DNA of 64,000 bases, taken from IMG/VR virus record IMGVR_UViG_3300033120_000579, positions 38,863 through 102,862 of that record; one strand, given 5' to 3'. The translations under genes were made by a program, and so were the position numbers. Of the stretch, positions 1-64,000 are shown one piece after another. Within the stretch, counting starts at the first letter, position 1. Each line of letters begins with the position of its first letter. The notes under the pieces are model-generated. The model saw only the letters and a list, made by a program, of their open reading frames with translations. It did no database searches and was not told the DNA's origin. The DNA comes from a virus (Duplodnaviria > Caudoviricetes).

Positions 1-1
1 T

Positions 2-3281: not shown

Positions 3282-3297
3282 AATTAAATAATAAAAA

Positions 3298-3537: not shown

Positions 3538-3701
3538 TGATTTATAATATAGAATTAACATCTGAAGAAATTCAAGTAATACAAGTTGCTTTAGATTTTA
3601 TATCTAATGGTAATATTGGATTTGAAGCTTTAGAAGGATATATAGATAAAGATATTGATCCTTGGGAAATTAATAATAGTTTAAAAGAAAAATTTAAATA
3701 A
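3537..3701 (+). CDS. Small hypothetical protein (54 aa, below the ORF-track cutoff)
   Basis: MIYNIELTSEEIQVIQVALDFISNG...; TAATG coupling at both ends fills the gap exactly. Confidence 0.7.
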   Translation: MIYNIELTSEEIQVIQVALDFISNGNIGFEALEGYIDKDIDPWEINNSLKEKFK

Positions 3702-4216
3702 TGAAATATTATTTATTAACATTTAATGAAGATTATGGTGATGAACATGATGTTCCAGCATTATCTTGTATGACAGAGAAAGAATATAATAATTGGTTAG
3801 AAACTCCTTCTGGAGAATTAAATATTAATTATGAACTAGAGTTAGAAAAATTTAATACTAATAAAAAAATTAGAGATACTTTTAGTATTAAATGTAAACA
3901 AATTTTAGGAGATAATTGGAATTCTATACCATTTACTCAATGGTCTGACGATTTATTAAAAGAATATAAAGAATTACCTAAAAATAGTTTTAGAGATTAT
4001 CCTACAAAATTAAATTCTTCTAAAATGTATGCCTCATTAGGTAATTCAGGCGAATGCTTTTATGAAAATTATATGAATTATTATTTAATGAAAGAATTTG
4101 TTGAAGCTAATTTAGTTAAAATATTAGAAGTAACAGAAGAGTTTTATAATATATTTTATAAAGCAAATTTAAATAATTTAAGTTTATGTAATGTTTTTAA
4201 AATAAATGAATATTAA
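3701..4216 (+). CDS. Hypothetical protein (171 aa)
   Basis: Last gene of the + strand block, coupled start. Confidence 0.7.
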   Translation: MKYYLLTFNEDYGDEHDVPALSCMTEKEYNNWLETPSGELNINYELELEKFNTNKKIRDTFSIKCKQILGDNWNSIPFTQWSDDLLKEYKELPKNSFRDYPTKLNSSKMYASLGNSGECFYENYMNYYLMKEFVEANLVKILEVTEEFYNIFYKANLNNLSLCNVFKINEY

Positions 4217-4224
4217 TTAAACAC

Positions 4225-4274
4225 AAAAAGACTCATAAAGAATCCTTAATTGGAAACTCTACGAGTCTTTTTTT
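4225..4274. terminator. Bidirectional intrinsic terminator between convergent blocks
   Basis: AAAAAGACTC...GAGTCTTTTTTTT inverted repeat with A and T tracts, located between stops at 4216 and 4289. Confidence 0.8.
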
Positions 4275-4288
4275 TATACCCTATAAAT

Positions 4289-7200
4289 TTATTTACCAAA
4301 TCTACTGTTTAATCCATTATATAATTCTTCAGAAGTAACTTCTAATTTACTTAATACTGGAATTAATTTTTCAGTTTTTCTAACAATTTTTAATTCACCT
4401 TTATTTTTACCTGTTTGATATTTATCATCAATTTCAGCCCAATTCCAAGGTAAAATATATTCAGCTACATCTAATGTTTGCTCAATAATTCTAAGTGATG
4501 GAATAGGACTTTTAGTAATTTTAGTAGCCTCTCTAGGATCTCTAAATTGACTAAGTTCAGATTCTAATCTTCTTGATAAGAATGCAACTGTCCATAACCA
4601 TTTGTTATCATCATCTCCATCTGCTGCACCTGCAGCTAACATTCCAATTAATGGAAGTATTGCTCCAGTTAAAGCTAATTCCATTACAGACTTTTTAATA
4701 CCAGCTTTTTTATCATCTGATAATTCATTCCAGTTAGAACTTAATATATCAAATTTAAGTTGTCTTAAAGCAGGATAAACCCCATGAATAAGAAATCTAG
4801 CTGTACTTACATAAGAACCTTCTTCAGTAGTTCTAAGTGCGTTATTAAAATGAATATCTTCTTCAGTTAAGTTGTCTTGATGTTTATAAAATGATTGAGC
4901 ACCTCTAAATCTAGCTACAGCTTGTGGTATTAAATAACGTCTAAACAACATTATCATTTTACCCCACCAATGTCTATAAGCTTCAGGTTGTAAATTAGAA
5001 TCATAATTACCCATTGTGTCAAAAATCTTTTTCTTTACAAATAATAATAGTTGTTCCTTACCGCCTTCATTAAGTTTAGAACTTAAACTTCTATTAGTAT
5101 AAACAACTTTATCATTCATTCTAACAATACCTTTATCATCTTTAGCTAACATGTCTAATACTGATACAGCATCTTTTTCACTTACAATTTCACCATTTTT
5201 ATTAATGTAATTATTATTAATATCCATAACTTTAATAGATTCTAGTGTAGCCATAACCATAATAGATTGAACATAGTGTTCACCTCCAGAATGTAAAATT
5301 TGTAAAGATTCAAAATTGACTGCTGTTTTAGCAATACTATTTTTAATAAATTCTTGTTGTTGAACTGTAAATCCACCAAAAGTATCAAACATTTGATTAA
5401 CCTGATTTACAAATGATTGTTTAACTGGTCTAGAATAATCTCCAAAAATATTAGGTAAATCTTTAGTATAAATTTCATTAGCTTTTTTAACAGAACCTTT
5501 AGTTAAATGATTACCTGCAACTCTTTCTAAAAATATTTGAGCTTGAGCATTTAAAACGTTTGCTGCTGCTGAAAATGTATTTAATGACAAACCTATAGAA
5601 GATACCCAACTATTAGTTGTACTAATAATTTTATTAACATCTAAAGGTCCCATTTTACCATAAGTAATATGAAATAAATCATAAATATTCTTTTCAATTA
5701 AATTACTAATCATTTTATATTCATTAGAATCAATACCTCTTTTAGTAGATTCTTTTTCTCTTTTAGCATATTTATTTAAAATAGAAATATTTCCTGCAGT
5801 TTTATTATAGTATTCTTTATTTTTAGCAATCATTTTAATTGCTTCAACTTGTAATGAAATAGCTTGTTTTTCTTTGTAATTTATACCATTAATACGATTT
5901 AAACGATTGATTGTAAATAAGTCTAAAGATTGTTGATCTGGGCTAATATCACCTCTGTAATGAACTCTTAACATATTTACAGAATTACCTTTACTATCTA
6001 AACGTTGTTCAACATATCCAATATCATCAGGTCTAATTTCAGTTAAATCTTTCCAAGCATCTTTTAAAATACCTTTAGTATTACCTTCAAGAATTCTTTC
6101 TTCATTAGATTTGGTTACAGAAGGTAAATTATAATAAGTAATTCCTAAAAATGGTTGAATTAATGATTGAATACTATTAGTTTGAGTATCTGTAATTTTA
6201 GTATCACTAATAAAATGATTAAGAACTTCTTTTTCAATTTTACTTAATTTAGATAAATCATTTTTCCATTTACTAGTTGGTATTTTAATTCCATCTACAT
6301 TAACAGTATTATCTTTTATAAATTTAGAAAATTTATTTCTAGCTTTAATATATTCAACATCTTTAGAATTATTTTCAGAAGCTTTATATTTAGCTATTTT
6401 ATCATTTTTTAATCTTAAATATTCTTCTCTAAATTTAATAGAGTATTCTCCTTTATAATAAGCTTTACCAGTACTATCAAATTCTAATAAATTGGTATAT
6501 AATTTAGTTGGGATACTAGAACCTCTTTCTTTAACTAATTTATCAAATAATTCAGCATCTTTAAAATCACCTTCTCTAGTTTGTTCAATAATTTTTTCTC
6601 TAGCTTGAGTAATTAAGTTAAATGTAATACTAACTAATCTAGAATTATTATTAATAGCATCCATAAATTTAACAGAAGCTGAAGAAATATCTGTTCCAAT
6701 ACCAATTAATAATAATTCAATTTCTTTATCTAAATCAAGTTGTATCTCATCTTTAAATGTAGTATTCATTTGTTGAGAAACCCATTCAGTTTGACTTATA
6801 TTAGTTAAACCTCTTTGTTTAAATTCAGCATTTAATCTTTTTCTCCATTTATCTTCAATTTGAGGTAAATAATTAATATTATTTAATTGATTTTTAAGAA
6901 TATCTATTAATTTACTATTAAGTCTTTTCTCTAATAAATCATGTTTACCTGTTGCATCTGATATACTTTTTTCTATTTCATCAACAAGTTCTTGACCAAC
7001 TTCATCAATTTTATCTTGATTTAAAGAAGTAATTAAAGTTGAAACATCATCAATTAAATCATAAGAAGACATATAACTTTTATACAATTCAATTATTTCT
7101 AAACCATTAGATTGAGTTAAATCTTCATTTTTAAGTCTAGTTTCTAATTGTTCAATTGTTGATAACATTGATTTAGTATAAACTGCTACACCTTTCCATT

Positions 7201-8374
7201 GATTAATTCCATCAACTTTATCTATTTCAGAAATTAATTCTTTAATATGTTGTTCAAATTTAGTACCTTTGGCTTCATTATTTTTTTTATAAGACTTACT
7301 ACGGTCTAATAAATTATCTAAATTATCTTTAGCTTTATTTAAAGTTCTATTAAGTCTATCTTCGATTGTTTCAATTTTAGATTTAGAAGATTCTTTTTTA
7401 TTAGCAAATATTAATTTTTGTAAATTAGTACCTCTATAATCTCTTCTATCTTGTTGAACATAATCAACAACTTCTTCAATAAGTTTATCTATTTCCTTAG
7501 TCTTAGCTAATCCAAATAAGCGTCTTATAGCGTCAATAAATTGTTTCCAATATGAAGTATTATTTTCTCGATCTAAAGCTTTTAATTCTTCTCTAAATGC
7601 TTTATTAGCATATATTTCAGCTACAAATTCCTTTTCATTTGTAAATCCATAACTTTGTATATCTAAAGAAAAATCTCCTATATCTTTAACACTTTTATCA
7701 ACTTGTTTATTAAAATAATTAATATACCATTTATTAATTAAATTTTTAAAATCTTTTTCTTCAAAAGTTTGAGGATTTAATAGAGCTTGTAATGTTTGAG
7801 AATGTGCTAATTCATGTAAAAATGTTTCAACTACTTCATCTGTAGTAAAATTACCTAATCTTTGTCTATTTGCTTGAATTGTGTTAGTATCACTATTAAT
7901 TTGCATAACAGTATTTTCATCAGACATTGCTACTTCAGATACAAATTGAAATTTAGCTCCAGTTCTACCAATTAATCTTCTAGATTTTTCTAATAATTCA
8001 ATACCAATAGGAGATAAATTCTTATAATTATTAAGAATATTTTCAAGAATTTCATCTACAGTAATCTTACCTTGTTGATTATTAAATAAAACTCTATTAT
8101 TTTCATTAGAATAATCAATTGTTTCATCACTAATAACTTCAGTATTTTCACTCCAATCTAATTCATTTTTTTTAGACCCTTTAAGATTGTTAAAAATATT
8201 TTCAACTTTTTCAATTTGTTCAGATTGAATTACATCTTCAACTTTAGGGTATGAATCTAAACCATTTTTATCTTGATATTGACTTATTCTCATTTCTAAT
8301 AAAAGTGAAGGAAGCTTAGTAGCTTCCAACAACTCTTGAAATTCTTTTGAACTGGTGTTAATGCAGTTTACCAT
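4289..8374 (-). CDS. Giant virion cargo/ejection protein with N-terminal zincin-like domain (1361 aa)
   Basis: HELAH followed by NEKEFVAE (HExxH...E); C-terminal hydrophobic segment; third of three giant genes around the RNAP, as in crAss-like phages. Confidence 0.75.
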   Translation of the reverse strand: MVNCINTSSKEFQELLEATKLPSLLLEMRISQYQDKNGLDSYPKVEDVIQSEQIEKVENIFNNLKGSKKNELDWSENTEVISDETIDYSNENNRVLFNNQQGKITVDEILENILNNYKNLSPIGIELLEKSRRLIGRTGAKFQFVSEVAMSDENTVMQINSDTNTIQANRQRLGNFTTDEVVETFLHELAHSQTLQALLNPQTFEEKDFKNLINKWYINYFNKQVDKSVKDIGDFSLDIQSYGFTNEKEFVAEIYANKAFREELKALDRENNTSYWKQFIDAIRRLFGLAKTKEIDKLIEEVVDYVQQDRRDYRGTNLQKLIFANKKESSKSKIETIEDRLNRTLNKAKDNLDNLLDRSKSYKKNNEAKGTKFEQHIKELISEIDKVDGINQWKGVAVYTKSMLSTIEQLETRLKNEDLTQSNGLEIIELYKSYMSSYDLIDDVSTLITSLNQDKIDEVGQELVDEIEKSISDATGKHDLLEKRLNSKLIDILKNQLNNINYLPQIEDKWRKRLNAEFKQRGLTNISQTEWVSQQMNTTFKDEIQLDLDKEIELLLIGIGTDISSASVKFMDAINNNSRLVSITFNLITQAREKIIEQTREGDFKDAELFDKLVKERGSSIPTKLYTNLLEFDSTGKAYYKGEYSIKFREEYLRLKNDKIAKYKASENNSKDVEYIKARNKFSKFIKDNTVNVDGIKIPTSKWKNDLSKLSKIEKEVLNHFISDTKITDTQTNSIQSLIQPFLGITYYNLPSVTKSNEERILEGNTKGILKDAWKDLTEIRPDDIGYVEQRLDSKGNSVNMLRVHYRGDISPDQQSLDLFTINRLNRINGINYKEKQAISLQVEAIKMIAKNKEYYNKTAGNISILNKYAKREKESTKRGIDSNEYKMISNLIEKNIYDLFHITYGKMGPLDVNKIISTTNSWVSSIGLSLNTFSAAANVLNAQAQIFLERVAGNHLTKGSVKKANEIYTKDLPNIFGDYSRPVKQSFVNQVNQMFDTFGGFTVQQQEFIKNSIAKTAVNFESLQILHSGGEHYVQSIMVMATLESIKVMDINNNYINKNGEIVSEKDAVSVLDMLAKDDKGIVRMNDKVVYTNRSLSSKLNEGGKEQLLLFVKKKIFDTMGNYDSNLQPEAYRHWWGKMIMLFRRYLIPQAVARFRGAQSFYKHQDNLTEEDIHFNNALRTTEEGSYVSTARFLIHGVYPALRQLKFDILSSNWNELSDDKKAGIKKSVMELALTGAILPLIGMLAAGAADGDDDNKWLWTVAFLSRRLESELSQFRDPREATKITKSPIPSLRIIEQTLDVAEYILPWNWAEIDDKYQTGKNKGELKIVRKTEKLIPVLSKLEVTSEELYNGLNSRFGK

Positions 8375-11300
8375 TATTTACATTTTTTAATATACTCTTT
8401 AACATATTCTTCTCCAAATTCTCGAATCATATCATTAAATTGTTCTTCATTAATATTACTTTCTTCCATTACTTCTTTATTTTGAATCCATAATTTATCT
8501 TCTAATTCAGATTCTTTTTTAACAATAACATTCTCTCTATAAAATATATCTCTAGGATAAATAGCTTCATTATTAAAAAACTCTAATTGTTGTTTATTCA
8601 TAATTCCAGCAATACCTTTAGTAGGTTCTCTAAGATTAATACCTTCTATATCAAAGTTAATAATTCTATTACCTTTCTTATCTTTTACATTAAGATTTTT
8701 AATATCAGTGTATTCACCATTAATATTAGGAATGAATCTAGTATAAATTCCTTGATAGTTTGAATTATATCCAATTAATTTATAATAAATTGGTGGTAAA
8801 CCTTGATCATTCTTTTTAATTCTAAAATAACTTACTTTACCAGGTTTCTTAACCAAGAATCCATTCAAATTTCTTAATTCTTTTTGAATTTGACCATCTG
8901 TAATATTTTTAACAAACTTAGTATCTTCTAAATTAGATAAAAAGAATTGATCTATAAAATTATCATCATTAAATTCTTCATAACCATCATATTTAAATGA
9001 TGTATCAATTATATATCTATTGATATTATTTCTATTAAACCATTGTGTAGGAATCATAGTAAAGAATTGACTCATATGATTATTAAATCCAGATGTTAAA
9101 TATGAATATTTAATAAGTTTATTAGCAAATTCTTCATGATCATTTAATAAATCTAAAAATGAATTAGTCATACTATCTTCAAATTCTTTAGATTTTTTTC
9201 TATTATTTAAACCTACAAATTGTAGAATATCACCTTGTTTAATAGTCATTTGATCTATAATAGAATATAAACCTTCATTATCTTCTTTAAATAATTCAAA
9301 TTCTTTAACAAAATTTAAAGTTAAATCTCTTCTTTCTTGATTAGTCATTTTAAGTGGTTGAAAACCTGACATAATATAACTATAAAAAGTTTTATCTAAT
9401 TGTTTACTTAAATTTTGATCTAATAATACTTCATTATTAACATTATGTGATATTTCATTAAAAGTATCTTGAATAGTGTCATTAGCAATTAAGAATAATT
9501 TAGGATTAGCTTTAACTATTTGTTCAGGTTTAATAATTATATTTTTATAATATTTACTAAACATACTTTCAGAACCATTTGGATTTGTAAATTTAGAACT
9601 AAACCCTAATATAATATTTTTCTTAAATTTAATTTTATCTTCATAAGATAAATTATTATATTTTTCTTCGGCATCTAATATAGAATCTACAGCATTTTTA
9701 GATATAATTAATGAATTAACACTACCTCCAATACCATTTACCATAAATTTAGATGCATCAATATTAGTTTTAATTGCTTTAGATGCGGATTGATATTCTA
9801 AAAAAGTATTAAATACATCCATTTGAAATTTATCATCAATATCCAATATATTACTTCTTAATGTATTTAAATTTTTATTAAAAATATTACCTTTAAAATA
9901 ATTTTTATATTCTTCTTGACCAAATCTTTGTTTAATAAAAGCTTCCATAGTACTAAGACCTTGATTTTGAGAACTTTCATATTGTTCAGAAAATTCTACA
10001 TATTCTTTAATAACTGGCTGTGCTAAGAAAGCATTTACATAAAATGGATGTACACCTTTACGAAGTAACAAATTACCTGTATTAGTTGTCATAGTAACCC
10101 AATTACCTTCTGTGATATATGGATCTTTAGCTATATCTACAAATGCATTAAGAATTGCAGATAATGAATGTCCAATTTTAATAGATTTTAATTTATTAAC
10201 TTCTTCTTTACTAAGATTTAATTCTTTAGCATAATAATCTAAATCAGATTGAGATAATTCTTGTGAATATTCCATATCTAACTTATCATTACTTCTAGGA
10301 ACTTCAAAATTAGTTATATTTAAATCAGCTAAACTTCCTAATACATAATCCATTAATGAGTTAGCTTGTTGTCCTACACCAGCTTTACCCGCTAAGAAAC
10401 TATATTTAACATCTATATCTTTTAATTGATTAAATGTAGATAAATTAGTTGTAGGTGCTACTTTAGAAATACTTCTAATATCATTTTTAATATAATCAAA
10501 ATCTACAGGTGTCATTACTTCACCAATAACATTTTCATTTAATAAAACAGATTTATATAACTCTATTAATCTATTTTGTAAAGCTTCTTTAGTTTGTTCT
10601 GATTCAGGTTTAGAATTATCATAATTTTGATAAACTAATTTATTATTTTCAACTTTATAAGCTGGAAACATTAGATACATTTTATCAATATCATAATCAG
10701 ACCCTGTTTTAGTAGTAATACCTGTATAAGCTACAACAGTATCACCAGTTTCTTCTGGTAATATTCCAACTATTTCTAAAGCATCATTAGAAGATAATCC
10801 TTGATTAGGAATTCTATATCCAATAATATTTTCTAATATTCTTTTATCAATTACTTCATTAAATAATTGTTCTGCTGTATATTTTTTATAATCTGGAATA
10901 TATTTAGCTATAAAACTACCTGATAATAATATACCACCAGGTCTAATTACTTTTTTACCATTTTCAGATAATATAAATTCACCATTTTCATCTTTAAGAA
11001 ATTGTGGCTCATGAGTAGTAGATAGCGCTCTAGGACTCCATATAACACCTTGTTTATTAGCATTTTCTTTATTAAGTCCAAAGTTACTCATTTGAATAAA
11101 TGACCCACCATTAGTCTTAATTTTAAGAATTCTTTTAGTTAAGATAGAACTGAATATATTTTGTAATTTATCTTTAGCTTGAGCTACTCCATAAATACTA
11201 ATTTCAGATTCTAAAGCATCAATAACATTTTGTGAACCACCTCTAGATTTTAATTCAGATATAATAGAATTATAAAATCCTTCAATATTAGTTATAGTTC

Positions 11301-53758: not shown

Positions 53759-56312
53759 CTTTAGTTTTAATATTTAGTTCAATTATCCATTCATCTTTTT
53801 CTTTATTAATATTTACATTATAACTAAATCTAGGATACTTACCTGAAAATAATTCCATTTTATCTTGAAATGAATCTATTTGGTCTAATGCTTTTTTTAA
53901 ATCTTTTTCTTTAATTAGATATGTATTATTCAATTTGTAGTTGTTTTAATAGTTTTTTAAATTCTGATTTATTTTTAATATCTCCTTTATAAATACATTC
54001 TGATTCCCCATAATTTAAACTACCTTCAATAGATCTAGAACATGTTTCGTCAAAAAATCTGTGTACATATATTTTATGATATTTATTATCAAATCTATCT
54101 ATATGTAAAGTTGCTTTTAGAAAATATGGATATTCACCAGGTAAATCTTCTAAGAGATAATCATAATAACCTACCCATTGGTTTTTTAAGGTTTTTCTAA
54201 AACCTAAACTTTCAATATCTTCTTGATCCAAATATTTTATTTTTACTTTTTCTAATTCAAATTCTTTACATATATTTATTGTTTGTAAATCATCTGTAAA
54301 AATATATGGGTCTATGAAAATATTATCTTTAATTTCAAAACCATCAAAATAGTGTAGTTTTATATTATTATAAATTTCTTCTATATCAGGTGTATAATAT
54401 TTAGATTCCATTTCCAAATTTATTAATAGGTGTTACTTCAAATAACAAATTATAATTATTAGTTACATCTTTATATTCACATATATCTCCATCTTCTACA
54501 AGTTTAATAGCTTGTTTTAAGAAGTTGATAATCTTATCTTTATCGTCTTGTTTATATTCCATTGTTTGTTTTATATAATTCCCATTCAACTCTATTCATT
54601 AAATCAGGAAACCTTTCAGGATTACATGATTCAAATACTGAAGTTTTACCTTTAAAATCACAACCACATTTAATACATTGCTTACTAATAGCACAATCAT
54701 CTTTACATTGTAATCTTCTATAAGCAATTTGTTCTTGTATATGTTCGGGTTGTAATTTTAGTTCTTCTAATACTCTTTGTGTATTACCTTCTAGATATTG
54801 TTTAATATTTTTAATTGTTATTTTTGACTTCATAATTATGAATTTTAGATAATATCATAGTTCTTTCTAATGAATCTAATTCTCTACCAATTAATTCTGG
54901 TACAATATTATCAATATTATCTTCAGTTACTTTATCTTCTAAAGTTATAAGATAATCTACTAAATCATCCATTTGTCTAAGTCTTGTGTAAAAACCTTTA
55001 ACTTGTTTCTTAATATTATTTCTATCTTGTAACTTTACTTTTCTTAATCCGTTTTTACTATATGTGTGCATTATTTTTATTTGCTAATTTATAATCTTTT
55101 TCAATCCATTTATTATCTATTCCTTCAAATTCAATTCTTTCAATAAAATCTTCAGTTTCATTTAAAATATATAAACTTTTCTGTTCATCTTTAATAATAC
55201 AACCAACTAAAGGATTAAAAGAGTTATTTGATATAATATATTTAGAAACTTTACTCATTGTTTTATCAACATCTATATCTATAAATTCTTGAATATTTGT
55301 AGATTTATATTTCTCACTCTGTAATCTTTTAAATTTTAAATAGTCGGAATTTTCTTTACCCCACTTACTTCTATATACTTCTAATTCTTCCTCTGTCTTA
55401 GATGGAAATATTTTTTTCCAATATTCTAACTCTTTTGGGTTATTTTCTTTATTCATTAATTTTATAATTTAAAATTTTAGTATTGATTATTTGATTACCT
55501 TCTCTATTAAAAATTAAATGTTTTCTAATATATCCAGTTTTGTTTCTAACAAAGATTTGAACTGTGGGTTGATTTGAATCATTTAAAAATAAACCAACAT
55601 TAATATCATTTAATCTATTACCTCTCCACTTATGTGTATAATGATTATAAAGATTAAATATGTCTTTTTGATTAGTTATAATATGATTCTCTATTTCTTC
55701 TATTTTATTTTTTATATCTACGACCATCTGGTTTATTATTTTTACTGTTAAAATGTTCTCTTATAAATTCTTTATCACATTCTCTTAAAACTATGTTTTG
55801 TGGATTTCCATCTTTATTTATAACTTTCCAATATTTTTCTATCATATCTTCTGGTTTTAAATTCCACTCGTCATTAAAATATTGTATATTATCTCCTTCC
55901 ATTAGTTTAATTTACTTAAATCTATTATATTAAATCTATATGATTCAGTTGATTTATTTTTTATTAATTTAATTTCTTTTTTATCATATATTGGATCTGA
56001 TTGTATAAATAATATTTGTTTATAATCTTTTCCAAAATTACCATTTTGTTTTAATTCTTTAATATAATTTTTATTATACTTTTTACGTCTTAAAACTTCT
56101 TTATCAATTTCTTTTTGAACTAAAGGAATATCTTTAAAAATATAAGACATCCATCCTCCAGAATTATTAAATATATTTACATCATTAGAAACAGACTCAT
56201 CTCCTTGTGAATTACCATGAAAAGCATATTCAGATTTTAAATCATCAATACCATATTTTCTAGTAAATGTATATTCTGTAAATATATTATTATTATAATC
56301 TTCTTGTTTCAT
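53730..56312 (-). CDS. Run of coupled small hypothetical genes (53730..53933, 53926..54417, 54401..54589, 54552..54833 Cys-rich, 54811..55071, 55058..55456, 55449..55727, 55705..55902, 55902..56312)
   Basis: Contiguous overlapping ORFs on the late strand; 54552..54833 has C..DC....C..CGC...K......C metal-binding spacing. Confidence 0.6.
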
Positions 56313-56848: not shown

Positions 56849-56871
56849 ATATCTTATTATTTTAATTCTTA

Positions 56872-56905
56872 TACAAAGATACAACAAAATATCGAGACTA
56901 CCAAA
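56872..56905 (-). promoter_or_regulatory. Bacteroidota-type promoter
   Basis: TTTGGT-N18-TATCTTTGTA upstream of ATG 56848. Confidence 0.8.
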
Positions 56906-56965
56906 TATTTTTGCAATTATTTTTCAAAAAAGTGTAAAATAATTTAAAATAGTTAAATTTAAAGC

Positions 56966-57000
56966 AAAAAAAAAGACCTAACACTGTTGTGAAAGGTCTT
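56966..57000 (-). terminator. Intrinsic terminator
   Basis: AAGACCTTTCACAACAGTGTTAGGTCTTTTTTTTT on the minus strand. Confidence 0.8.
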
Positions 57001-57362
57001 AATTATAATTTTAGAGATTAGCGTCCATGATATTATCATATATAATCTTAGATGGTTGTCTAAACGGTTGTCCTCTGGTGCAAACATAGTTAATCGCTGA
57101 TGATAGCAATCTAAGTATCCTGTAAATCTCTAATAAATATAAGTTTCCTATAACTATAACTAATAATTATAGTTTATTAATATTTAACTAATAGATATAG
57201 CGAGGTTTCCACGATTTCCTGAGAAATGTGTTACCCTTGGCTAGCCAGTGTTACAGAAGTTGTCATACCTCGCAAAACCCATCCTCTCAAACCTAAACGT
57301 CAGTGCCGTGTCCACTATTAATTGAGACAACTGTATCCTAAACTAGTTGCTATTTTATTTTA
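57001..57362 (-). ncRNA. Candidate structured ncRNA with its own promoter and terminator
   Basis: No credible ORF; GC-enriched helices (57200-57206/57267-57273, 57011-57019/57125-57133, 57047-57053/57109-57115, 57327-57332/57345-57350). Confidence 0.6.
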
Positions 57363-57365
57363 TAC

Positions 57366-57399
57366 TACAAAGATACGACATTTATTTGTAAAATCCTAA
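57366..57399 (-). promoter_or_regulatory. Bacteroidota-type promoter (drives the ncRNA candidate)
   Basis: TTAGGA-N18-TATCTTTGTA. Confidence 0.8.
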
Positions 57400-57429
57400 T
57401 AAAAATACAATTATTTTCAATTTATTTTA

Positions 57430-57927: not shown

Positions 57928-57941
57928 ATAAAATAATTTAT

Positions 57942-57975
57942 TACAAAGATAAGAAATAAAAATGAAAATTCCTAA
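57942..57975 (-). promoter_or_regulatory. Bacteroidota-type promoter, first of the late strand
   Basis: TTAGGA-N18-TATCTTTGTA upstream of ATG 57927, with A/T tracts further upstream. Confidence 0.8.
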
Positions 57976-58180
57976 TATTTTTCAAAAATTTTTTTTATTT
58001 TTTTTTCAAAAATTTTTTATTTATCGAGATCACTAAGTAACTTAAAGATCAGCCCCACTCTTTTAAAACTTTGGGGATATACCCTATCCTTTTTGTCTAA
58101 TCTGAACTATTTATATCTTGACTCGATATTAGTTCATACAAATCACAGCGTTGTAGCTGTATAAATATCTACTATGTCCT

Positions 58181-58492
58181 ATGTTCGTAGCTAAATTTAC
58201 TCCAACATCTGGTGCTCCATTCACAGCTGATAAGAATGGTAACTTTCCTTACATTGGTACTGTTGTAGCTGGTAAAGCTAAAGGTAGTATCATCAATGGT
58301 ACATTGTTTAAACGTGGTGCTCTTGAAGCTAACAAGTTATACTTATGTGATAACTCTGTTAGTGAAGAATATCCTGATAACTTCCAAACTGATGTAATCA
58401 CTTCAGTTACAGTATCAGAGTTTATGCAACTACGTACTGAGTTGGGTGCTCCAAATGTAACTGTTACGGAAGAAGTTCCAAACAATGCATAA
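58181..58492 (+). CDS. First early-strand protein (103 aa), unknown function
   Basis: Isolated ORF with its own terminator and codon usage rich in GGT/GCT/CGT/AAC, like the capsid genes. Confidence 0.75.
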   Translation: MFVAKFTPTSGAPFTADKNGNFPYIGTVVAGKAKGSIINGTLFKRGALEANKLYLCDNSVSEEYPDNFQTDVITSVTVSEFMQLRTELGAPNVTVTEEVPNNA

Positions 58493-58495
58493 TCT

Positions 58496-58527
58496 ATAGG
58501 GACTCTTTGGAGTCCTTATATTTTTTT
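58496..58527 (+). terminator. Intrinsic terminator
   Basis: TATAGGGACTC-TTTG-GAGTCCTTATA followed by TTTTTTT. Confidence 0.85.
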
Positions 58528-58678
58528 AACCTTAACTAAAAGAAACCTTTTGAGTTTGACTCAAATAAACTCTAATTAAAGATTTAGTAATTAATACTAC
58601 CTATTGTGATTGAGACATTTCACAACATTAAATACTTATTATTTCTAAATCTTTAAATACTACCTATATATAAGGTAT

Positions 58679-58785
58679 AAATAATTATGAGTTCAAATTA
58701 ATTACGATTTGATTTAATTTGATGAAACTTTGAAATCAATACTATAGTAATCGATCTATTGAGAAAGTAAATCTTATAATTATTT
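58679..58785 (+). ncRNA. Duplicated three-way-junction RNA motif, copy 1
   Basis: AAATAATTATGAG...CTTATAATTATTT closing helix, two internal hairpins, conserved ATGAA.CTTTGAAA and AAGTAAAT junctions; second copy at 62070. Confidence 0.5.
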
Positions 58786-58931
58786 GTACCTATATATTAA
58801 GGTATAAAATTTTAATAATAGTATCTCATAATATTATTGTTAATACACTAATAGAAGTTTAGTAATAAGTAGGAAGCCCAACAGTATTTGACACAATCCT
58901 AATTGCAATTGCTTATTCTAAACTTTTATTT

Positions 58932-59060
58932 AGTGTTATAATGTATTATTCTCAATTTCCAAGGTTGAGTAGTTGTAAGTATTTTAGGAGGGTACATTCT
59001 TATAGATTAAGTCTATAAATACTGAGGCCACTATTACAACTAAATACAGAGGATAACACT
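58932..59060 (+). ncRNA. Twister-ribozyme-like RNA, copy 1
   Basis: P1 AGTGTTA/TAACACT; UAA; P2 TGTA/TACA; P4 CTCAA/TTGAG; L4 (T)T-TCC-AA-GG; P5; GA-GGA. Confidence 0.6.
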
Positions 59061-59061
59061 G

Positions 59062-59178
59062 TTATAATAAACTCTCATCCAATTGCAGGTAGTAAGTGAT
59101 GCTTAAAAATTACTATAAGTAATATATAAGACTATAAGTAGCTGAGTCAAGGTGCAACCTTGTGAGAGTTTTTTATAA
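59062..59178 (+). ncRNA. Candidate structured RNA
   Basis: AAACTCTCA/TGAGAGTTT closing helix with a CAAGG-TGCAA-CCTTG hairpin stacked on its 3' side. Confidence 0.45.
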
Positions 59179-59353
59179 CTTATTGATTATGAAGGTGTTG
59201 AGGTTTAGGTTATATCATCCAAATGTAAAGTAAACTTGTCATTCACATTCAAAAATACACACTAAATCTATACTTATAGCTTTTATATCACATTTAAGTT
59301 AAACCAACTATATCAAAATTATAACTAATTATTAACTAAAATACAACAATATT

Positions 59354-59536
59354 ATGAAATATCAAGACATTTTAAACAAAAAAGTATTATTTGAAACTAA
59401 TAATGCACATGAATTTATGCAATATTTAATGAAAAAAGAAAATACTCAATCATTATGTTACACATTAATTAACTTATTACAAAATTCTAAAGGTTATACA
59501 TGTAATATGGCATCAGCTATAGGTGAACAAATATAA
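59354..59536 (+). CDS. Small early protein
   Basis: ATG in ATT-ATG context; 60 aa. Confidence 0.6.
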   Translation: MKYQDILNKKVLFETNNAHEFMQYLMKKENTQSLCYTLINLLQNSKGYTCNMASAIGEQI

Positions 59537-59665
59537 ACTAATTAAATTTAAACAATTTAATGATTTACCATTTTGGATAAATCCTTGGATTATATATCCA
59601 TTAACTTTATTAATTTATGCATCTCAAGAACAATGTCTTAAACTAATTGATAAATATCAAAAATT

Positions 59666-60681
59666 ATGATAATATTAATAATAACATATGGAATTGTTAT
59701 AATATTATGTTTATCAGTGGTATATATAGTAAGCACACTTATTAATGAAGATAATCATTAACTAAAACTAACAAATAAAAAATTATGATAACAATATTAA
59801 CAATTATTACATTTATTCTATCATTTATAGGATTATGTATTACATTTAAAGGTCAATTTGATAATAAATTAAAACAAACTCTGTTAGGTTTGTTGATAAT
59901 ATTATTATCACCAACACCAATTATAATTAAATACTACTATGATAGTAAACAAATTATGAAAATTGAATATGAAATTGAGTTAATTAATCAAGATTCAATT
60001 AAAGTTTACAATGGTTCTATATTAGATACAATTCCATTTAATAAATTAGAAAAATATATCGAATCTGACAATCTTTAAATTATGGAAATAACATTAAATT
60101 TAACAGCAACATTAATTATGATATTTGTAATTCATACTATATTTACTCATTTATTAAATTGGATGATTAGAGAAGTAGATGAACATGAATTAACAGGTTT
60201 AACAATATTTTTAAATATTATAGAACTATCCTTATGTATTATATTTATAATGATATTAACAAAATGATATTATGAAATATATTATTTCATTTATTATTTG
60301 TAATTGGTAAAAACACATAAATTATGACAATAACATTTACATTTGCTATTATAGTAGCATTAGTTATAATATTATTTCTAAATCAATTAGAGAAATAATG
60401 TCAAATGAACAATACATAATGATATTCAATAACATTGTTATTGGTATTACAATTATAGCTATTATTTATATAACTATTAATACAATAATTAATAAAAATA
60501 AATAATTATGTTTATAAAATATATATCACATTCAAGAATTAAAAAAGTTGAAATATCTACTAGAAATTATAATCCTATTATTAAAATTACAGTTAGTAAT
60601 ATTAGAAATGAGGATGAAATTTATGAAACTAAAGAGTATATTTCAGATGAAAAAGGTATTTACGAAGAATTTGAATACTAA
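59666..60681 (+). CDS. Cluster of tiny early ORFs, mostly membrane peptides (59666..59761, 59785..60078, 60082..60267, 60324..60398, 60398..60505, 60508..60681)
   Basis: Most start in an ATT-ATG context and one by TAATG coupling; five have 1-2 hydrophobic helices; four are below the ORF-track cutoff. Confidence 0.55.
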
Positions 60682-60715
60682 ATAACATAAAATAATAATC
60701 TTAAAAACAAATGTT

Positions 60716-61396
60716 ATGGAACAGTTTAAAAGAGCAAAAGTAGTTATGCTTCCTACTAATATAAGAAGTGTTATAGCAATAAGTGATACATTAGGTTTAT
60801 TACCATATAATATAACTCAATATGTTAAGATAAAAGAACATATAGTACCTCAACATCTTTATATTATATCCGATGATGAAATTAAAGAAAGAGATAAAGT
60901 GATATTTAATAATAATATCTACACTGTATTAAAAACAGGAATACATTATTACGGAGATTTTGATTTACAAGTTTCTAATAATATGTTTATACCTAGTAAT
61001 AAAAGTAAAAAAATAATAGCTACTACTGATAAATCTTTATCTATTAAATTACATATAGGAGAAGTAGTAGATAATTCTTATCCTCAAGCATTTCATAATA
61101 TTTTACCTCAACCTTCTCCTCAATTTATACAAAAATATATTGAATCTTATAATAAAGGTGAAATTATTACTGATATATTAGTTGAGTTATTATCTGAAGA
61201 AAGTTATGGTTGTGATTTAGCTTATTATGGTTTAACTGAGCCTGAACTTAAAATCAATCCTAAAGATAACACTATTACAATTAAGAAAATTAAAGATACT
61301 TATAGTAGAGAAGAAATTTTTGCTGTAATTGAAACATATAACAATGCAAAAGGAGATGCTCCTAATATTGTTGATTGGTTAAAAGAAAATTTATAA
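60716..61396 (+). CDS. Hypothetical early protein (226 aa)
   Basis: VVMLPT...QHLYIISDDEIKE.D...KKIIATTD..L...LPQPS.QFI.KYIE.YNKG, a recurrent Bacteroidota-phage family; function unknown. Confidence 0.75.
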   Translation: MEQFKRAKVVMLPTNIRSVIAISDTLGLLPYNITQYVKIKEHIVPQHLYIISDDEIKERDKVIFNNNIYTVLKTGIHYYGDFDLQVSNNMFIPSNKSKKIIATTDKSLSIKLHIGEVVDNSYPQAFHNILPQPSPQFIQKYIESYNKGEIITDILVELLSEESYGCDLAYYGLTEPELKINPKDNTITIKKIKDTYSREEIFAVIETYNNAKGDAPNIVDWLKENL

Positions 61397-61686
61397 ACAT
61401 ATTAGCAGGTTAAATATATTTATAGACTGTTCACTTATTATATAGTTATAACTAATACATAACGTATGGAAAGAATTATGTAGTATAATAACATCAGCAA
61501 TATATTTAATCACGTTCAAAACTAATATGTTTTATTATGGAGCAGGAAGTTTATCTGGTCAGCCTGAAAAGGTAGGGTTTAAATCTGGTCAGCTCCAAGT
61601 ATTAACTATTGTAAGAGTGACATCCTTGCTCTAAGAGATGGATGTGTAATACGATGAATTAACATTAGCCGCTTTTACAATAGTTA
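61395..61686 (+). ncRNA. Three adjacent structured elements (61395-61532, 61538-61597, 61603-61686)
   Basis: Closing helices AAACATATTAG/CTAATATGTTT, TGGAGC/GCTCCA and TAACTATTGTAAGAGTG/CGCTTTTACAATAGTTA; no ORF. Confidence 0.45.
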
Positions 61687-61712
61687 TTTTTAATAATTAA
61701 ATCAATAAAGAT

Positions 61713-61859
61713 ATGAATAAACTAAAATTAATGTTTTGGATAATACTGACATTTTTATGGTCTTATTTTGAACTAGTATATATACTATATAAAAAAGAAC
61801 CATCAAGAATAGGTATATATCTATTTGATAAATTATGGTCAATTTTTGAAGAGGAATAA
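61713..61859 (+). CDS. Small membrane peptide (48 aa, not in ORF track)
   Basis: MNKLKLMFWIILTFLWSYFELVYILY... Confidence 0.55.
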   Translation: MNKLKLMFWIILTFLWSYFELVYILYKKEPSRIGIYLFDKLWSIFEEE

Positions 61860-61862
61860 ATT

Positions 61863-62060
61863 AAATCACTTACTTGAAGATAAACAATAATATTGAGGTA
61901 ATGAGTCAAGTTCCTAGCTTATATAGTTACACAAGAGATGAAACGGCTCTTATATTATAAACTGTATTAGCAGTTGTGTTTATTGTAGAAACATTGTAAT
62001 GACCTATATAGGGATGGCGACCTTAAACAAATGTTCCACTAGAATTTGGATAAGTGATTT
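61863..62060 (+). ncRNA. Candidate multi-branch structured RNA
   Basis: AAATCACTTA/TAAGTGATTT closing helix with nested helices; no ORF. Confidence 0.4.
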
Positions 62061-62069
62061 TTAAAATAT

Positions 62070-62189
62070 AAATAATTATGAGTTTGAATTACATGACGGT
62101 AATTTAATGAATCTTTGAAAATATAATGATAATATACTATACTAGTTGACTAGTTAACTCATTTATAGAAGTAAATCTTATAATTATTT
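62070..62189 (+). ncRNA. Duplicated three-way-junction RNA motif, copy 2
   Basis: Same closing helix and junction sequences as 58679-58785, with different but paired internal stems. Confidence 0.5.
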
Positions 62190-62390
62190 TTTTAAACTAA
62201 AAGCTGTCAGTGAGTAAAACTGTCTCGTTATACTTAAAGTAGAAATAGGTATAATTAAATAATAGTTTCTACAGGATAAATACACTATTTTATCTAACAT
62301 CTTATATTTGAGTTGCAAATCATTTATAAGCTCTGGAAAATACTTACTAATGAGACCATTAGGTCAAACCTCATCAATGTGTATTATTGA

Positions 62391-62507
62391 TGTTGTATTA
62401 ATGTATCATTCTAACTTCCCAAGGGTTAGCTGTTATAATTGGAATAAATCTATTATTGAACCGAGCCTGAAATCAATAAATTACAACAGAATACAGAGGG
62501 TAACACT
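62391..62507 (+). ncRNA. Twister-ribozyme-like RNA, copy 2
   Basis: UAA 62399-62401; P2 TGTA/TACA; P4 CTAAC/GTTAG; L4 (T)T-CCC-AA-GG; P5; GA-GGG-TAACACT; P1 weaker. Confidence 0.55.
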
Positions 62508-62526
62508 AATTTAAAATAGAGAAATT

Positions 62527-62715
62527 ATGATTAAGAAATTGCTTTTAGAATATCCATCTACTTTCCTTTTAGGAACTGTATTTGGAACTGTATTAGGCTT
62601 CTTTATAACATTTTTGTTAATGAAAACAGATATAAGAACTGCAGAAGAATCTTATGAAATAGGTTACAAAAACGCTCAACAAGAATGTAGAGATTTCATT
62701 AAAAATACTAAGTGA
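62527..62715 (+). CDS. Small single-TM protein
   Basis: FLLGTVFGTVLGFFITFLL TM segment; ATT-ATG start. Confidence 0.65.
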   Translation: MIKKLLLEYPSTFLLGTVFGTVLGFFITFLLMKTDIRTAEESYEIGYKNAQQECRDFIKNTK

Positions 62716-62882
62716 TGAATCATCCTCCTGTTCCTTGTACACCTTCTATGCCTTGTTGGTGTGAAAAACATCCTAATAATCCTAATTGTCAGAATGTAGA
62801 AACTGTTCCTATAGATAATTCATTTTTTATAATTATTATAGTTTTATTAACAATTTATAAAACATTTAAGAAATTAAAATAG
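62715..62882 (+). CDS. Pro/Cys-rich micro-protein with a PID-CTERM-like tail (55 aa, not in ORF track)
   Basis: MNHPPVPCTPSMPCWCEKHPNNPNCQNVETVPIDNSFFIIIIVLLTIYKTFKKLK; TGATG-coupled to the upstream gene. Confidence 0.65.
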   Translation: MNHPPVPCTPSMPCWCEKHPNNPNCQNVETVPIDNSFFIIIIVLLTIYKTFKKLK

Positions 62883-62951
62883 ATTAAATTATTATTTAAA
62901 CAACCTTAATAATTATATTATTAAAATTAATATCTATAGCATAGATATAAG

Positions 62952-63889
62952 ATGGTGATCTTTAATAATAGTTTAATCTTAATATTTAAAATTATGAGCA
63001 CAAGAGAATTTTTACAATTTCTAGGTCACACATCTGGAGATATTAAACAAAGATACAATAATAAACAAATTAGAATATCAAATAAACCAGTTAAAAATTT
63101 AAATAGAAATCTTAATTTTGAATATTATATGACTTTAGAAGAATGGTTAAATTCTCATGATATAGAGTTTATAATAAAGTTAAGAGATTTAAGTATATTA
63201 TTTAATAATATTTATGAAATGTTTTATTTAAAAACTAATATAAATAGTTCAATATTAAAATATTTAAAGTCATTTATATTATTACAAATTGATAAAAAGA
63301 CATTTTATATATTAATTAAAAATTAACTACAAATTATGAAAAATATTAACAAATTACAACAACAAGGTTATACTGGTATTAAAGTTACATCAATGTTAAA
63401 TGCTTGTTTATCAAATGAAATTAAAGTTCATTTAAGATTAGTTCAGTTAGATAATTTATCTAAAATTAATAACAAATATTTCAAAACTAAAATTATTTCC
63501 AAACCTGAAATGACTCTTCTATGGAATATTTATTGGAATTTTGTATTAAATGATTTTAGATTTGATGATAAATCTAAAGAATACACTATTATTAAATCAA
63601 TAGTAAAAGCTGAACCACAACATATTGGCTTAAAAATGTTAAATCAATTATTATGACAATCTTAGAACATTCAAAAATTAAGAAATTTAGTTTAAATACT
63701 TATTTTAAAGTTAAAACTAAAAATCTAAAATTTTATGGTAAAACTAGACCTAAATATAAAGAAGGTTTTATTTTTGTAGGATTATTTGGTGAATATTTCT
63801 TTAATGAAACAGGACCAACTCAAAAAAATAATATATTTGAAATAAATCATTCTATTTCAAATATTGAAGTAATTGAAAGAATAAATTAG
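62952..63889 (+). CDS. Three hypothetical early proteins (62952/62994..63326, 63336..63656, 63653..63889)
   Basis: Co-oriented, closely spaced ORFs. Confidence 0.6.
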
Positions 63890-64000
63890 AATAGAACGAG
63901 TCACCTCAAATTAATTTAGCTAAATTATCAGGTAAGCTCTGAATGACTAAATAATGATTATATAATGTTGCCAGCCTTGTAAGCTTGGAAATGGAGGTAT

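Follow-up and report, generated by a model that had tools for sequence, protein, structure and literature searches.

What do the non-coding islands in the early region of this phage contain, and could they be made into RNA? The window (the whole 64,000-nucleotide stretch of DNA that was analysed) is the last 64 kb of the 102.9-kb genome of a marine crAss-like phage, kin to Cellulophaga phage phi14:2. Among known viruses, the crAss-like phages rank with the most abundant. Four parts of the window, 58493-59353, 61397-61712, 61860-62526 and 63890 to the end, are without an ORF of at least 45 aa, and nothing convincing opened in these gaps when TAG or TGA was taken as sense. Between 58540 and 62510, 46-59% of the sequence has no plausible ORF, the range reflecting whether ORFs of 31-48 aa are counted. 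The statement in the first-pass annotation that roughly half of 58.5-62.5 kb is non-coding is therefore correct under any stop-codon reading. Its description of the rest of the window as almost gap-free is roughly right, except for gaps at 53759-53925, 56849-57429 and 57928-58180.

Composition and folding of the islands

The islands are occupied by twelve units, which adjoin one another over ORF-free stretches of up to 860 nt, and by part of a thirteenth at the end of the record (Table 1). ARAGORN identified neither a tRNA nor a tmRNA in the window; in the circularised genome it identified a single tRNA-Leu (genome positions 5436-5520) and no tmRNA. Intrinsic termination was considered for the units and rejected, as 0 of 12 fit; of G+C-rich hairpins followed by a U run, only that at 58495-58520 also has a plausible position in the region, and it precedes the units. 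The earlier reading that no unit is a tRNA or a U-tailed terminator thus stands. This terminator forms the upstream edge of cluster 1, just ahead of the listed units. Rfam 15 gave nothing at gathering score over the whole window and, at E<=10, only four chance-level matches in 58000-64000. M9, M5, famA, the homologue of the record-end unit and the other units match no Rfam 15 covariance model.

Table 1. Features of the non-coding islands, in window coordinates. z, folding z-score within the boundaries given.
Feature	Position	Strand	Description
Intrinsic terminator	58495..58527	+	11-bp stem and U run (hairpin 58495-58520); ends 103-aa ORF 58181-58492
U1	58576..58656		hairpin-closed, 12-bp perfect closing stem; z -3.7 on +, -5.8 on -
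famA copy 1	58679..58785	+	three-way junction
U2	58845..58936	+	long near-perfect hairpin, ~27 bp; z -4.7
famB copy 1	58932..59060	+	twister-like; 87 bits with model R2
M5	59062..59178	+	closing helix AAACUCUCA/UGAGAGUUU, conserved UCCAAUUGCAGG, variable hairpin
U3	61395..61532	+	helix-closed; z -4.6 on +, -1.9 on -
U4	61538..61597	+	60 nt, 47% G+C, 6-bp closing stem; z -0.6, no fold signal
U5	61603..61686	+	12-bp perfect closing stem; z -5.9 on +, -3.7 on -
M9	61863..62060	+	198-nt multi-branch RNA; 133.9 bits with model R1
famA copy 2	62070..62189	+	three-way junction
U6	62208..62348	+	helix-closed, multi-hairpin; z -3.8 on +, +0.4 on -
famB copy 2	62391..62507	+	loop UUCCCAAGG, tail G-AGGG; 96.8 bits with model R2
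Record-end unit, 5' part	63890..64000	+	crosses record end into genome positions 1-110

Each unit had been proposed to be closed by a helix of 6-17 bp. In minimum-energy folds the stated helix closes every in-window unit but one, 62391-62507 (11 of 12). Perfect stems of at least 9 bp (span 30-230 nt) number 12, compared with 4.7 +/- 2.4 in dinucleotide shuffles and 7 in early coding DNA of equal length; those of at least 10 bp number 6, compared with 1.5 +/- 1.2 in the shuffles. Module-bounded z-scores are strong in five units (-3.7 to -5.9), moderate in three and near zero in the remainder, and are biased because the boundaries were picked on helices. In unbiased 100-nt sliding windows the mean z is about -0.5 whether the DNA is non-coding, early coding or late coding, so that thermodynamics alone cannot set the region apart from background. 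The region is set apart by comparative evidence.

RNA families shared with other phages

Selection maintains the base pairing of M9, M5, famA and famB, four RNA families that are new to Rfam 15 and widespread in IMG/VR. Six of the twelve units belong to these families, all of which show strong covariation in relatives, and the original observation of separately folding RNAs is confirmed. Search patterns set the core words of each family, which accounts for part of their invariance.

M9 has a closing helix P1, P2 (AUAAACA/UGUUUAU), a variable P3, P4 (AACUG-UAYYAG-CAGUU), a variable P5 and P6 (UCC-ACUAGAAUU-GGA). Its 23-nt core was found in 86 IMG/VR contigs, yielding 57 distinct full-length copies. 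Paired cells make up 91.9% of these, versus 39-52% with the partners slid, and double changes occur in 22 of 36 pairs, which 0 of 500 shuffles reach. P2 varies through G.U only. The ratio of G.U to A.C in paired cells is 141:20, and these wobbles indicate an RNA on the + strand. Two of 185,579 bacterial species genomes contain the 23-mer, both from Flavobacteriaceae. The core is also present in the cultured Cellulophaga phages phi14:2, phi4:1 and phi17:2, where M9 is annotated as "hypothetical protein"; as these phages have a laboratory host, they are already amenable to deletion, expression and pull-down experiments. The core lies 80-97 nt downstream of the end of a same-strand tRNA in 13 of the 22 tRNA-containing cases, a spacing which places the start of the motif directly after the tRNA.

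M5 is present in 34 IMG/VR contigs, with 98.6% of cells paired and covariation at all nine pairs of the closing helix. The loop of its hairpin (CAAGG-UGCAA-CCUUG) is able to pair with UUGCA, which would form a pseudoknot. famA, present in about 14 IMG/VR contigs, has a P1 (UUAUGAG/CUUAUAA) with a conserved G.U, and conserved strands AAYCUUUGAAA and AGUAAAU that join two variable hairpins. The outer P1 and the hairpins covary in 12 further copies. A hammerhead core is a three-way junction with CUGANGA and GAAA strands and an NUH cleavage site. famA was considered as a hammerhead and rejected: its junction strands (U, AAYCUUUGAAA and AGUAAAU) differ from that core and no hammerhead model matched. 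Two families had been said to recur in the same order in both clusters, a three-way junction and then a twister-like motif. This is the case, with famA as the three-way junction and famB, which has the twister core layout, after it. The arrangement famA-X-famB is a segmental duplication inside this genome.

All four families are intergenic, clustered together and on the strand of the neighbouring genes. Families at one locus agree in strand in 21 of 21 cases, and flanking ORFs are co-oriented with them (86:5 for famB). famB occurs in 8 of the 85 M9 loci. The phages that carry the families are of unrelated types: among them are a crAss-like podovirus, 145-kb Cellulophaga phages and myoviruses other than crAss-like ones, and the contigs measure 4-306 kb.

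The other six units, U1 to U6 (starting at 58576, 58845, 61395, 61538, 61603 and 62208), have only boundary-dependent folding support; neither metagenomes nor 2.3 Mb of related loci yielded homologues (for U1, none at E<1e-4). The strand of U1 is uncertain because its minus strand folds better than its plus strand; U6 folds well on the + strand only. The hairpin of U2 is a possible RNase III substrate. The end of U2 sits 3 nt ahead of the predicted famB cut. U3 lies directly 3' of the homologue of phi14:2 g004 and has only short similarities elsewhere. The interior of U4 contains a direct repeat (AUCUGGUCAGC, twice), and U5, which has no relatives, gives the strongest fold signal of all the units. 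A further unit had been suspected near 63899. It is real: it crosses the record end and is conserved, contiguously, in two other phage contigs, with a terminator after it at about genome positions 185-225. The part inside the window gives no fold signal.

famB and the twister ribozyme

The twister is a self-cleaving ribozyme (Roth et al. 2014), and its type P1 corresponds to Rfam RF03160. famB, found in at least 119 IMG/VR contigs (71 distinct copies), was compared with the twister features listed in PMC5408937 and PMC6154101. Copy 1 of the window consists of P1 (GUGUUA/UAACAC), UAA, P2 (UGUAU/AUACA), a P4 hairpin with the loop UUUCCAAGG, a long P5 and G-AGGA. Pairing across the family reaches 100% in P2, where one pair switches between C-G and U-A (34:11) and UGCAC/GUGCA variants occur. 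It is 98.7% in P4 and 96.3% in P5, and every pair of both stems covaries, including all five of P4. P1 is paired in only 56% of cells family-wide, and its helix length is 3.4, versus 3.0 in mismatched controls. The CCC of the loop and the GGG of the tail are complementary in all copies, the loop being fixed by the search pattern, and there is one compensatory case, UCC/GGA in copy 1 of the window. A U precedes the AA in 65 of 71 copies; the AA itself was set by the search pattern.

The elements of famB follow the order of a type P1 twister: (P1)-U-A-A-P2...P4 loop with UCCCAAG...optional P5...P2'-G-AGGG-(P1'). In twister T1, nucleotides of loop L4 pair with the 3' strand of L1 beside P1, and in famB three Cs of the loop may pair with three Gs of the tail in a similar way. 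The U-A cleavage dinucleotide of twisters lies in J1-2 beside stem P1 and has a highly conserved A; ahead of the AA, famB likewise has a less strictly conserved U. A conserved G lies at the foot of P2. The differences concern the helices and the second pseudoknot. P2 of famB has five Watson-Crick pairs (UGUAY/RUACA), whereas that of twisters has exactly four, extended by a sheared A-G (PMC5408937); famB has both an A (of UAA) and a G after P2 that could form such a pair. In T2 of twisters, two L4 nucleotides pair with a conserved GC in L2; L4 of famB ends in GG instead of GC, and L2 reads CAUUC, CAUUU or CAUAA, with no conserved complementary dinucleotide. P5, present in 1% of known twisters, is always there and long in famB, and P3, present in 78% of them, never occurs. 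P1 of famB is not conserved across the family; that of twisters is reportedly dispensable for cleavage (PMC6154101).

No match to famB was obtained at E<=10 with the Rfam 15 twister and twister-sister models in the 6-kb region, with twister models in searches of 156-161 bases around both window copies and of 131 bases around the shortest member (L177), or with RF03160 (twister-P1) over the whole genome. We infer from the shared layout that famB belongs to the twister-type self-cleaving ribozymes, as an enlarged form in which P5 is never missing. Cleavage would fall between U58939 and A58940 in copy 1 and between U62399 and A62400 in copy 2. A ready candidate divergent twister that standard models overlook, famB would, if it cleaves, widen the sequence space of twisters and show how phages cut early transcripts into stable pieces.

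Possible functions and relation to known phage RNAs

On balance, and with moderate confidence, we favour the explanation that the non-coding islands of the early module are a co-transcribed string of independently folding + strand RNAs, cut by famB into stable small RNAs. The string would be made early by an injected virion RNA polymerase, as suggested by the abundant, long-lived RNAs of the syntenic gaps in phi14:2. famB would cut before A58940 and A62400 and so free the units upstream, which would end in a 2',3'-cyclic phosphate a few bases past their closing helices, and it would give the downstream RNA a structured 5'-OH end. The long closing helices may protect the released units, which would accumulate as stable small RNAs for this reason. 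We infer transcription, discrete ends and cleavage in this phage from the DNA. A polycistronic small-RNA array made right after injection had been proposed from the outset. Covariation and strand-specific G.U pairs bear out discrete structured + strand RNAs, and the interpretation as a whole is partly supported; early synthesis is suggested by analogy with the phi14:2 early module and its stable RNAs downstream of g004. Our best guess for M9, M5 and famA is an action in trans on host proteins of defence or RNA handling, or else a role as additional processing ribozymes. A bolder and tentative version, which we consider doubtful, is that these three are new functional RNA classes, either self-cleaving ribozymes in a multi-ribozyme processing array or early decoys that bind host defence or RNA-processing proteins; that they pass as portable modules between unrelated Flavobacteriaceae phages; and that famB is a P5-bearing branch of twisters with a re-built second pseudoknot. 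The yield at present is four RNA families with alignments, not in Rfam; the number of viral contigs per family ranges from about 14 to more than 119.

Only the four families may be functional, the six units without relatives being spacer with chance AT-rich hairpins. The equality of sliding-window z with the coding background, the seven stems of at least 9 bp in early coding DNA and the lack of homologues agree with this. Yet within their own boundaries five of the six reach z of -3.7 to -5.9, folding is much better on the + strand in three, perfect stems of at least 10 bp exceed those in shuffles, and the units adjoin validated ones with gaps of a few bases. We regard spacer as somewhat unlikely, though a serious prospect. 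The units could also be cis-acting punctuation of the early operon (processing sites, 5' or 3' stabilisers, or insulators that determine how long the adjacent small early mRNAs last and how they are translated) without any function in trans. Natural and engineered ribozymes are known as transcript insulators, the units lie between small ORFs and are co-oriented with them, famB copy 2 ends 20 nt before the ATG of the ORF that begins at 62527, and 9 of 62 famB members have the next ORF within 40 nt. However, the distance from famB to the next ORF is very variable (median 172 nt, reaching more than 1 kb), no gene family is consistently found downstream, M9 is often placed after a tRNA and not ahead of a gene, and ORF-free stacks of units reach 860 nt. 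Punctuation alone is therefore unlikely.

The spread of the same families over unrelated phage types and contigs of 4-306 kb, the duplication of famA-X-famB and the inverted repeats at the ends of each unit would also be expected of selfish ribozyme or inverted-repeat cassettes that move among Flavobacteriaceae phages without benefit. Selection nevertheless acts on RNA pairing with strand-specific G.U and not on terminal DNA repeats, neither target-site duplications nor transposase or endonuclease partners were seen, each genome has a few diverged copies instead of recent bursts, and unit orientation follows the operon (86:5 for ORFs flanking famB), all of which makes this quite improbable. 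It is hardly credible that the helices are DNA-level signals, such as origins of replication, packaging sites or N4-like hairpin promoters used by the injected RNA polymerase. The region does head the early module, where a virion polymerase must start, the minus strand of U1 folds better, and no upstream sequence motif was found for the early transcripts of phi14:2 (bioRxiv 10.1101/2020.03.07.982082). The G.U to A.C asymmetry of M9 is not expected of DNA signals, nor are multi-branch structures with conserved junctions and pseudoknots, the occurrence of the families in myoviruses outside the crAss-like group, or the position of M9 directly at tRNA 3' ends.

The favoured string of small RNAs has its closest published counterpart in phi14:2. 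The rightward module of that phage is its early class, made by the injected RNA polymerase (bioRxiv 10.1101/2020.03.07.982082), and its g004-g005 and g005-g006 gaps give early, abundant, stable RNAs (Drobysheva et al., bioRxiv 10.1101/2020.03.07.982082). The two crAss-like phages are related, and both have non-coding DNA in the rightward early module after g004 or its counterpart, ORF 60716-61396 (E 3.5e-21). The g005-g006 RNA, published as an lncRNA, is shown here to be a tmRNA (ARAGORN 4031-4500; Rfam 46 bits), whereas the phage of the window has none. A blastn comparison of the window with phi14:2 2905-4601 gave chance-level matches only, the famB model found nothing in phi14:2, and that phage lacks the core words of famA, famB and M5. 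None of the window units could be matched to the abundant phi14:2 RNAs, and the M9 copy of phi14:2 (1285-1483) lies in another gap, g002-g003. The early non-coding RNAs in the only transcriptome of a cultured marine member had been left without explanation, and such regions now have an anatomy of separate, portable RNA modules selected for structure.

GOLLD and ROOL are large phage RNAs that adjoin tRNAs. Compared with these and with the clusters of different self-cleaving ribozymes near phage genes of Weinberg et al. 2015, as summarised in PMC10085705, the units of the window are shorter (60-200 nt instead of 300-800 nt), their hosts belong to Flavobacteriaceae rather than Firmicutes, and none of those classes in Rfam is matched by M9, M5 or famA. 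The likenesses are that several unrelated classes of structured RNA adjoin one another in phage DNA, and that association with tRNA genes and strong conservation are found in both.

Non-coding units of the early region

This crAss-like phage does have an archipelago of non-coding units, as one case of a wider pattern. Strings of portable, structure-conserved RNAs, absent from the standard catalogue, occur in various kinds of Flavobacteriaceae phages, either where early transcription starts or next to tRNA genes. Four RNA families, M9, M5, famA and famB, cover six of the twelve helix-closed units, famA and famB with two copies each (see table).

The source record is rated complete in IMG/VR (102,862 bp). 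The phage's major capsid protein shares 62.7% identity with its counterpart in Cellulophaga phage phi14:2; gut and Flavobacterium crAss-like phages are the next matches. The window has a G+C content of 22-32%. Its minus-strand side, up to 57927, carries large genes, three of them of 1361-2106 aa, and plus-strand genes start at 58181 in a rightward module that extends over the record end into the genome start. The rightward module of phi14:2 belongs to the early class and is transcribed by the injected virion RNA polymerase (Drobysheva et al., bioRxiv 10.1101/2020.03.07.982082). The genome's non-coding gaps are concentrated from genome position 95.7 kb, over the record end, to 5.7 kb. The 103-aa ORF that opens the module has no Pfam match. 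The divergent intergenic region before it has blastn matches in 14 other phage loci with M5 or famA (68-77% identity, 80-196 nt) and may hold early start signals or one more RNA. The ORF-free stretch on the minus-strand side is 86% identical to locus L267 over 270 nt and 72% identical to loci L086 and L167 over 257 nt, and is therefore a conserved non-coding element.

Locations of the features discussed
Feature	Location	Strand	Remarks
ORF-free stretch	window 56849-57429		minus-strand side, outside the unit array
Divergent intergenic region	window 57928-58180		separates leftward from rightward module
103-aa ORF	window 58181-58492	+	first of rightward module; own strong terminator; G+C above surroundings
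Stretches with no ORF of at least 45 aa	window 58493-59353, 61397-61712, 61860-62526, 63890-end
Intrinsic terminator	window 58495-58520		immediately upstream of first unit
famA	window 58679-58785, 62070-62189
Hairpins on both sides of famA copy 1	window 58661-58677, 58787-58804
famB	window 58932-59060, 62391-62507
M5	window 59062-59178
ORF homologous to phi14:2 g004	window 60716-61396		E 3.5e-21
M9	window 61863-62060
Junction unit	from near window 63899 to genome 1-110		runs over record end
Non-coding islands past record end	genome 1-252, 655-833, 2245-2481, 3170-3540, 4036-4224, 5424-5663
tRNA-Leu (UAA)	genome 5436-5520		in island 5424-5663; sole tRNA of genome
M9 core, phi4:1	NC_021788.1 129675-129701		under ORF 'hypothetical protein'; 145-kb phage
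M9 core, phi17:2	NC_021798.1 130153-130179		under ORF 'hypothetical protein'; 145-kb phage
M9 members with T-arm-like hairpin	L063:3488-3700, L070:7293-7486, L064:5525-5729		fetched loci
tmRNA, phi14:2	NC_021806.1, about 4031-4502	+	between g005 and g006

The first-pass annotation held that none of the units is a tRNA or a terminator, and this is borne out: ARAGORN calls no tRNA or tmRNA in the window, and the sole good intrinsic terminator precedes the array. A coding role under alternative codes was rejected, as TAG=Q, TGA=W and TAA-only stops give no convincing frame in the ORF-free stretches. Rfam 15 gives no match at gathering score and, at E<=10, four of chance level only; runs on very short stretches gave only chance matches to snoRNA, miRNA and CRISPR models. 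The closing helices named in that annotation form in the minimum-energy folds of 11 of the 12 in-window units, but not in the remaining one. Perfect stems of at least 9 bp with a span of 30-230 nt number 12, where dinucleotide shuffles have 4.7 +/- 2.4; those of at least 10 bp number 6, where the shuffles have 1.5 +/- 1.2. Folded within their own boundaries, which were picked on helices, five units reach z-scores of -3.7 to -5.9. However, unbiased 100-nt windows at steps of 60 nt show no difference in mean z between non-coding (-0.49), early coding (-0.60) and late coding DNA (-0.5). The case therefore cannot rest on folding energy; it rests on comparative evidence. As direct repeats confirm, the two clusters have a pair of motifs in common, arranged in the same order. 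The expected structural conservation in relatives holds for the four families, i.e. six units, but relatives of the other six were not found in the loci and metagenomes searched. Units at genome 655-833 are also closed by 8-bp helices.

Conserved RNA families and their genomic context

IMG/VR was scanned with conserved words from alignments with a few related loci. The 23-nt core of M9 is present in 86 contigs of 4-306 kb, which yield 57 distinct copies of full length (157-283 nt). In a 46-sequence alignment the hand-drawn structure (P1-P6) is paired in 91.9% of cells, against 39-52% with slid partners. Double changes affect 22 of 36 pairs, a level reached by none of 500 shuffles; variation in P2 is G.U only. 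Paired cells contain G.U and A.C in a ratio of 141:20, which indicates that the RNA is on the plus strand. Among 185,579 bacterial species genomes the core occurs in only two, Joostella and a Lutibacter MAG, both Flavobacteriaceae. It is also found in the cultured Cellulophaga phages phi14:2 (M9 copy in the g002-g003 gap, 58.7 bits), phi4:1 and phi17:2, where the annotation is hypothetical protein; the ORFs over the core in phi4:1 and phi17:2 are probably mis-annotated RNA genes. Blastn of the whole region or of single family members against 50,697 phage records gave nothing at E<=1e-3 because the matches are too short for a database of that size, and the core surfaces in the Cellulophaga phages once the threshold is relaxed to E<=10.

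M5 has a 21-nt core in 34 contigs, with 37 distinct copies. Its cells are 98.6% paired, double changes occur in all nine closing pairs, and three members have a matched one-pair deletion in the closing helix. The invariant hairpin loop UGCAA is complementary to an invariant upstream UUGCA, a pairing that survives one C-to-U wobble change. famA, with twelve more distinct copies beyond the window's two, is a three-way junction with conserved junction strands and a conserved G.U in P1; covariation is seen in outer P1 and the hairpins. Pistol, hatchet and hammerhead were rejected for M5, M9 and famA on element order and on the lack of Rfam matches. The hairpin flanking famA copy 1 reads UACCUAUAUAU(U)AAGGUA, and its 10-mer TACCTATATA has just two further sites in the 103-kb genome.

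In all 21 cases of two families at one locus, both have the same orientation, and they are often 70-600 nt apart. Motifs almost never lie inside ORFs, and flanking ORFs of at least 80 aa are co-oriented (M5 34:1, famB 86:5, M9 49:9 for the downstream side). The M9 core follows the end of a same-strand tRNA at a distance of 80-97 nt in 13 of 22 cases, so that the motif starts only a few bases from the tRNA. famB is present in 8 of 85 M9 loci, against about 1 in 20,000 IMG/VR contigs overall, going by the matches listed. Its flanks are typically non-coding for ~170-190 nt on either side, which places it usually inside a non-coding island like the window's.

The unit reported to start near 63899 does continue into the genome start as one contiguous conserved piece. 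Two other contigs carry it unbroken, six of its pairs being compensated, and the record ends are therefore joined in the real genome. A tRNA-like identity was considered, given a 5-bp stem with the 7-nt loop CUUGUAA, of anticodon-arm shape, and a T-arm-like hairpin; ARAGORN makes no call, and Rfam gives only chance matches for a homologue. A T-arm-like GGUUCGAUUCC hairpin also lies within a variable stem of some M9 members, so tRNA-like pieces recur in these RNAs. Loose blastn (+1/-1) gave many 59-62% matches to the AT-rich terminator/promoter part of genome 1-252, which were discounted as compositional.

Units without relatives and the corresponding stretch of phi14:2

Searches of metagenomes and of fetched loci totalling 2.3 Mb gave no relatives of the units starting at 58576, 58845, 61395, 61538, 61603 and 62208. 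The best identity of the g004-like protein among relatives is 47% in IMG/VR and 45% in metagenomes. Three of these six units fold much better on the plus strand; for 58576-58656 the minus strand gives the better fold, and 61538-61597 is without fold signal. Each of the six may represent a lineage-specific RNA, a hairpin of RNase III type or a spacer.

Homology to g004 makes window 61397-62526 syntenic with the non-coding g004-g006 stretch of phi14:2. Searches by sequence and by model gave no match of the window units to that stretch. For both of its parts the authors report rightward transcription that exceeds that of most genes, is seen as early as the first time point and does not fall off later as other early RNAs do; they left the function open (bioRxiv 10.1101/2020.03.07.982082). 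By position, the window units would likewise be transcribed early and abundantly. The g005-g006 RNA is a tmRNA, called by ARAGORN at 4031-4500 with the tag GSSVQKLAMVA. Its score with the tmRNA model of Rfam is 46 bits, 1 below gathering (E 7e-16), and NC_021806.1 has no tmRNA annotation within positions 1-9000. Of the two 'long non-coding RNAs' for which the phi14:2 transcriptome paper had no explanation, one is thus a phage-encoded tmRNA, which the window's phage lacks.

famB and the twister ribozyme

The 5' pattern of famB occurs in at least 119 IMG/VR contigs. The 3' word RUACAGAGGG, which the 5' scan did not demand, is present in 71 distinct copies among the matches listed; as a query, the 3' word AATACAGAGGRTAACAC gave only chance matches in coding DNA of unrelated viruses. 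Pairing is 100% in P2, 98.7% in P4 and 96.3% in P5, and covariation affects every pair of P4 and P5 and two positions of P2.

The elements follow the order (P1)-U-AA-P2-L2-P4[loop UUCCCAAGG]-P5-A-P2'-G-AGGG-(P1'). This is the twister order, by comparison with the rice and env22 sequences, a comparison that serves as a lead rather than a test. famB shares with twister the loop heptamer UCCCAAG and the G at the foot of P2, and has a possible three-pair loop-tail pseudoknot where twister has T1; CCC/GGG becomes UCC/GGA in window copy 1. Of 71 copies among the matches listed, 65 have U directly before AA.

Other features differ. Rfam twister models detect no famB copy, even in 130-160-base searches, and RF03160 (twister-P1) has no match in the whole genome. 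P2 has five pairs in famB and four in twister, the loop ends in GG instead of GC, and a conserved T2 partner was not found in famB. Family-wide, P1 shows no conservation: 56% of its cells are paired, and its helix length is 3.4 where controls have 3.0. P5, universal in famB, is present in 1% of known twisters. Defining features of twister were taken from two reviews (PMC5408937, PMC6154101).

On these sequence features, famB may be described as working like twister, short of demonstrated membership, and a divergent twister ribozyme is a plausible identity. We regard actual cleavage as about evenly balanced. If famB cuts as twister does, the cut sites would be U58939/A58940 and U62399/A62400, which lie 3 nt and 7 nt beyond the helices that close the upstream hairpin units.
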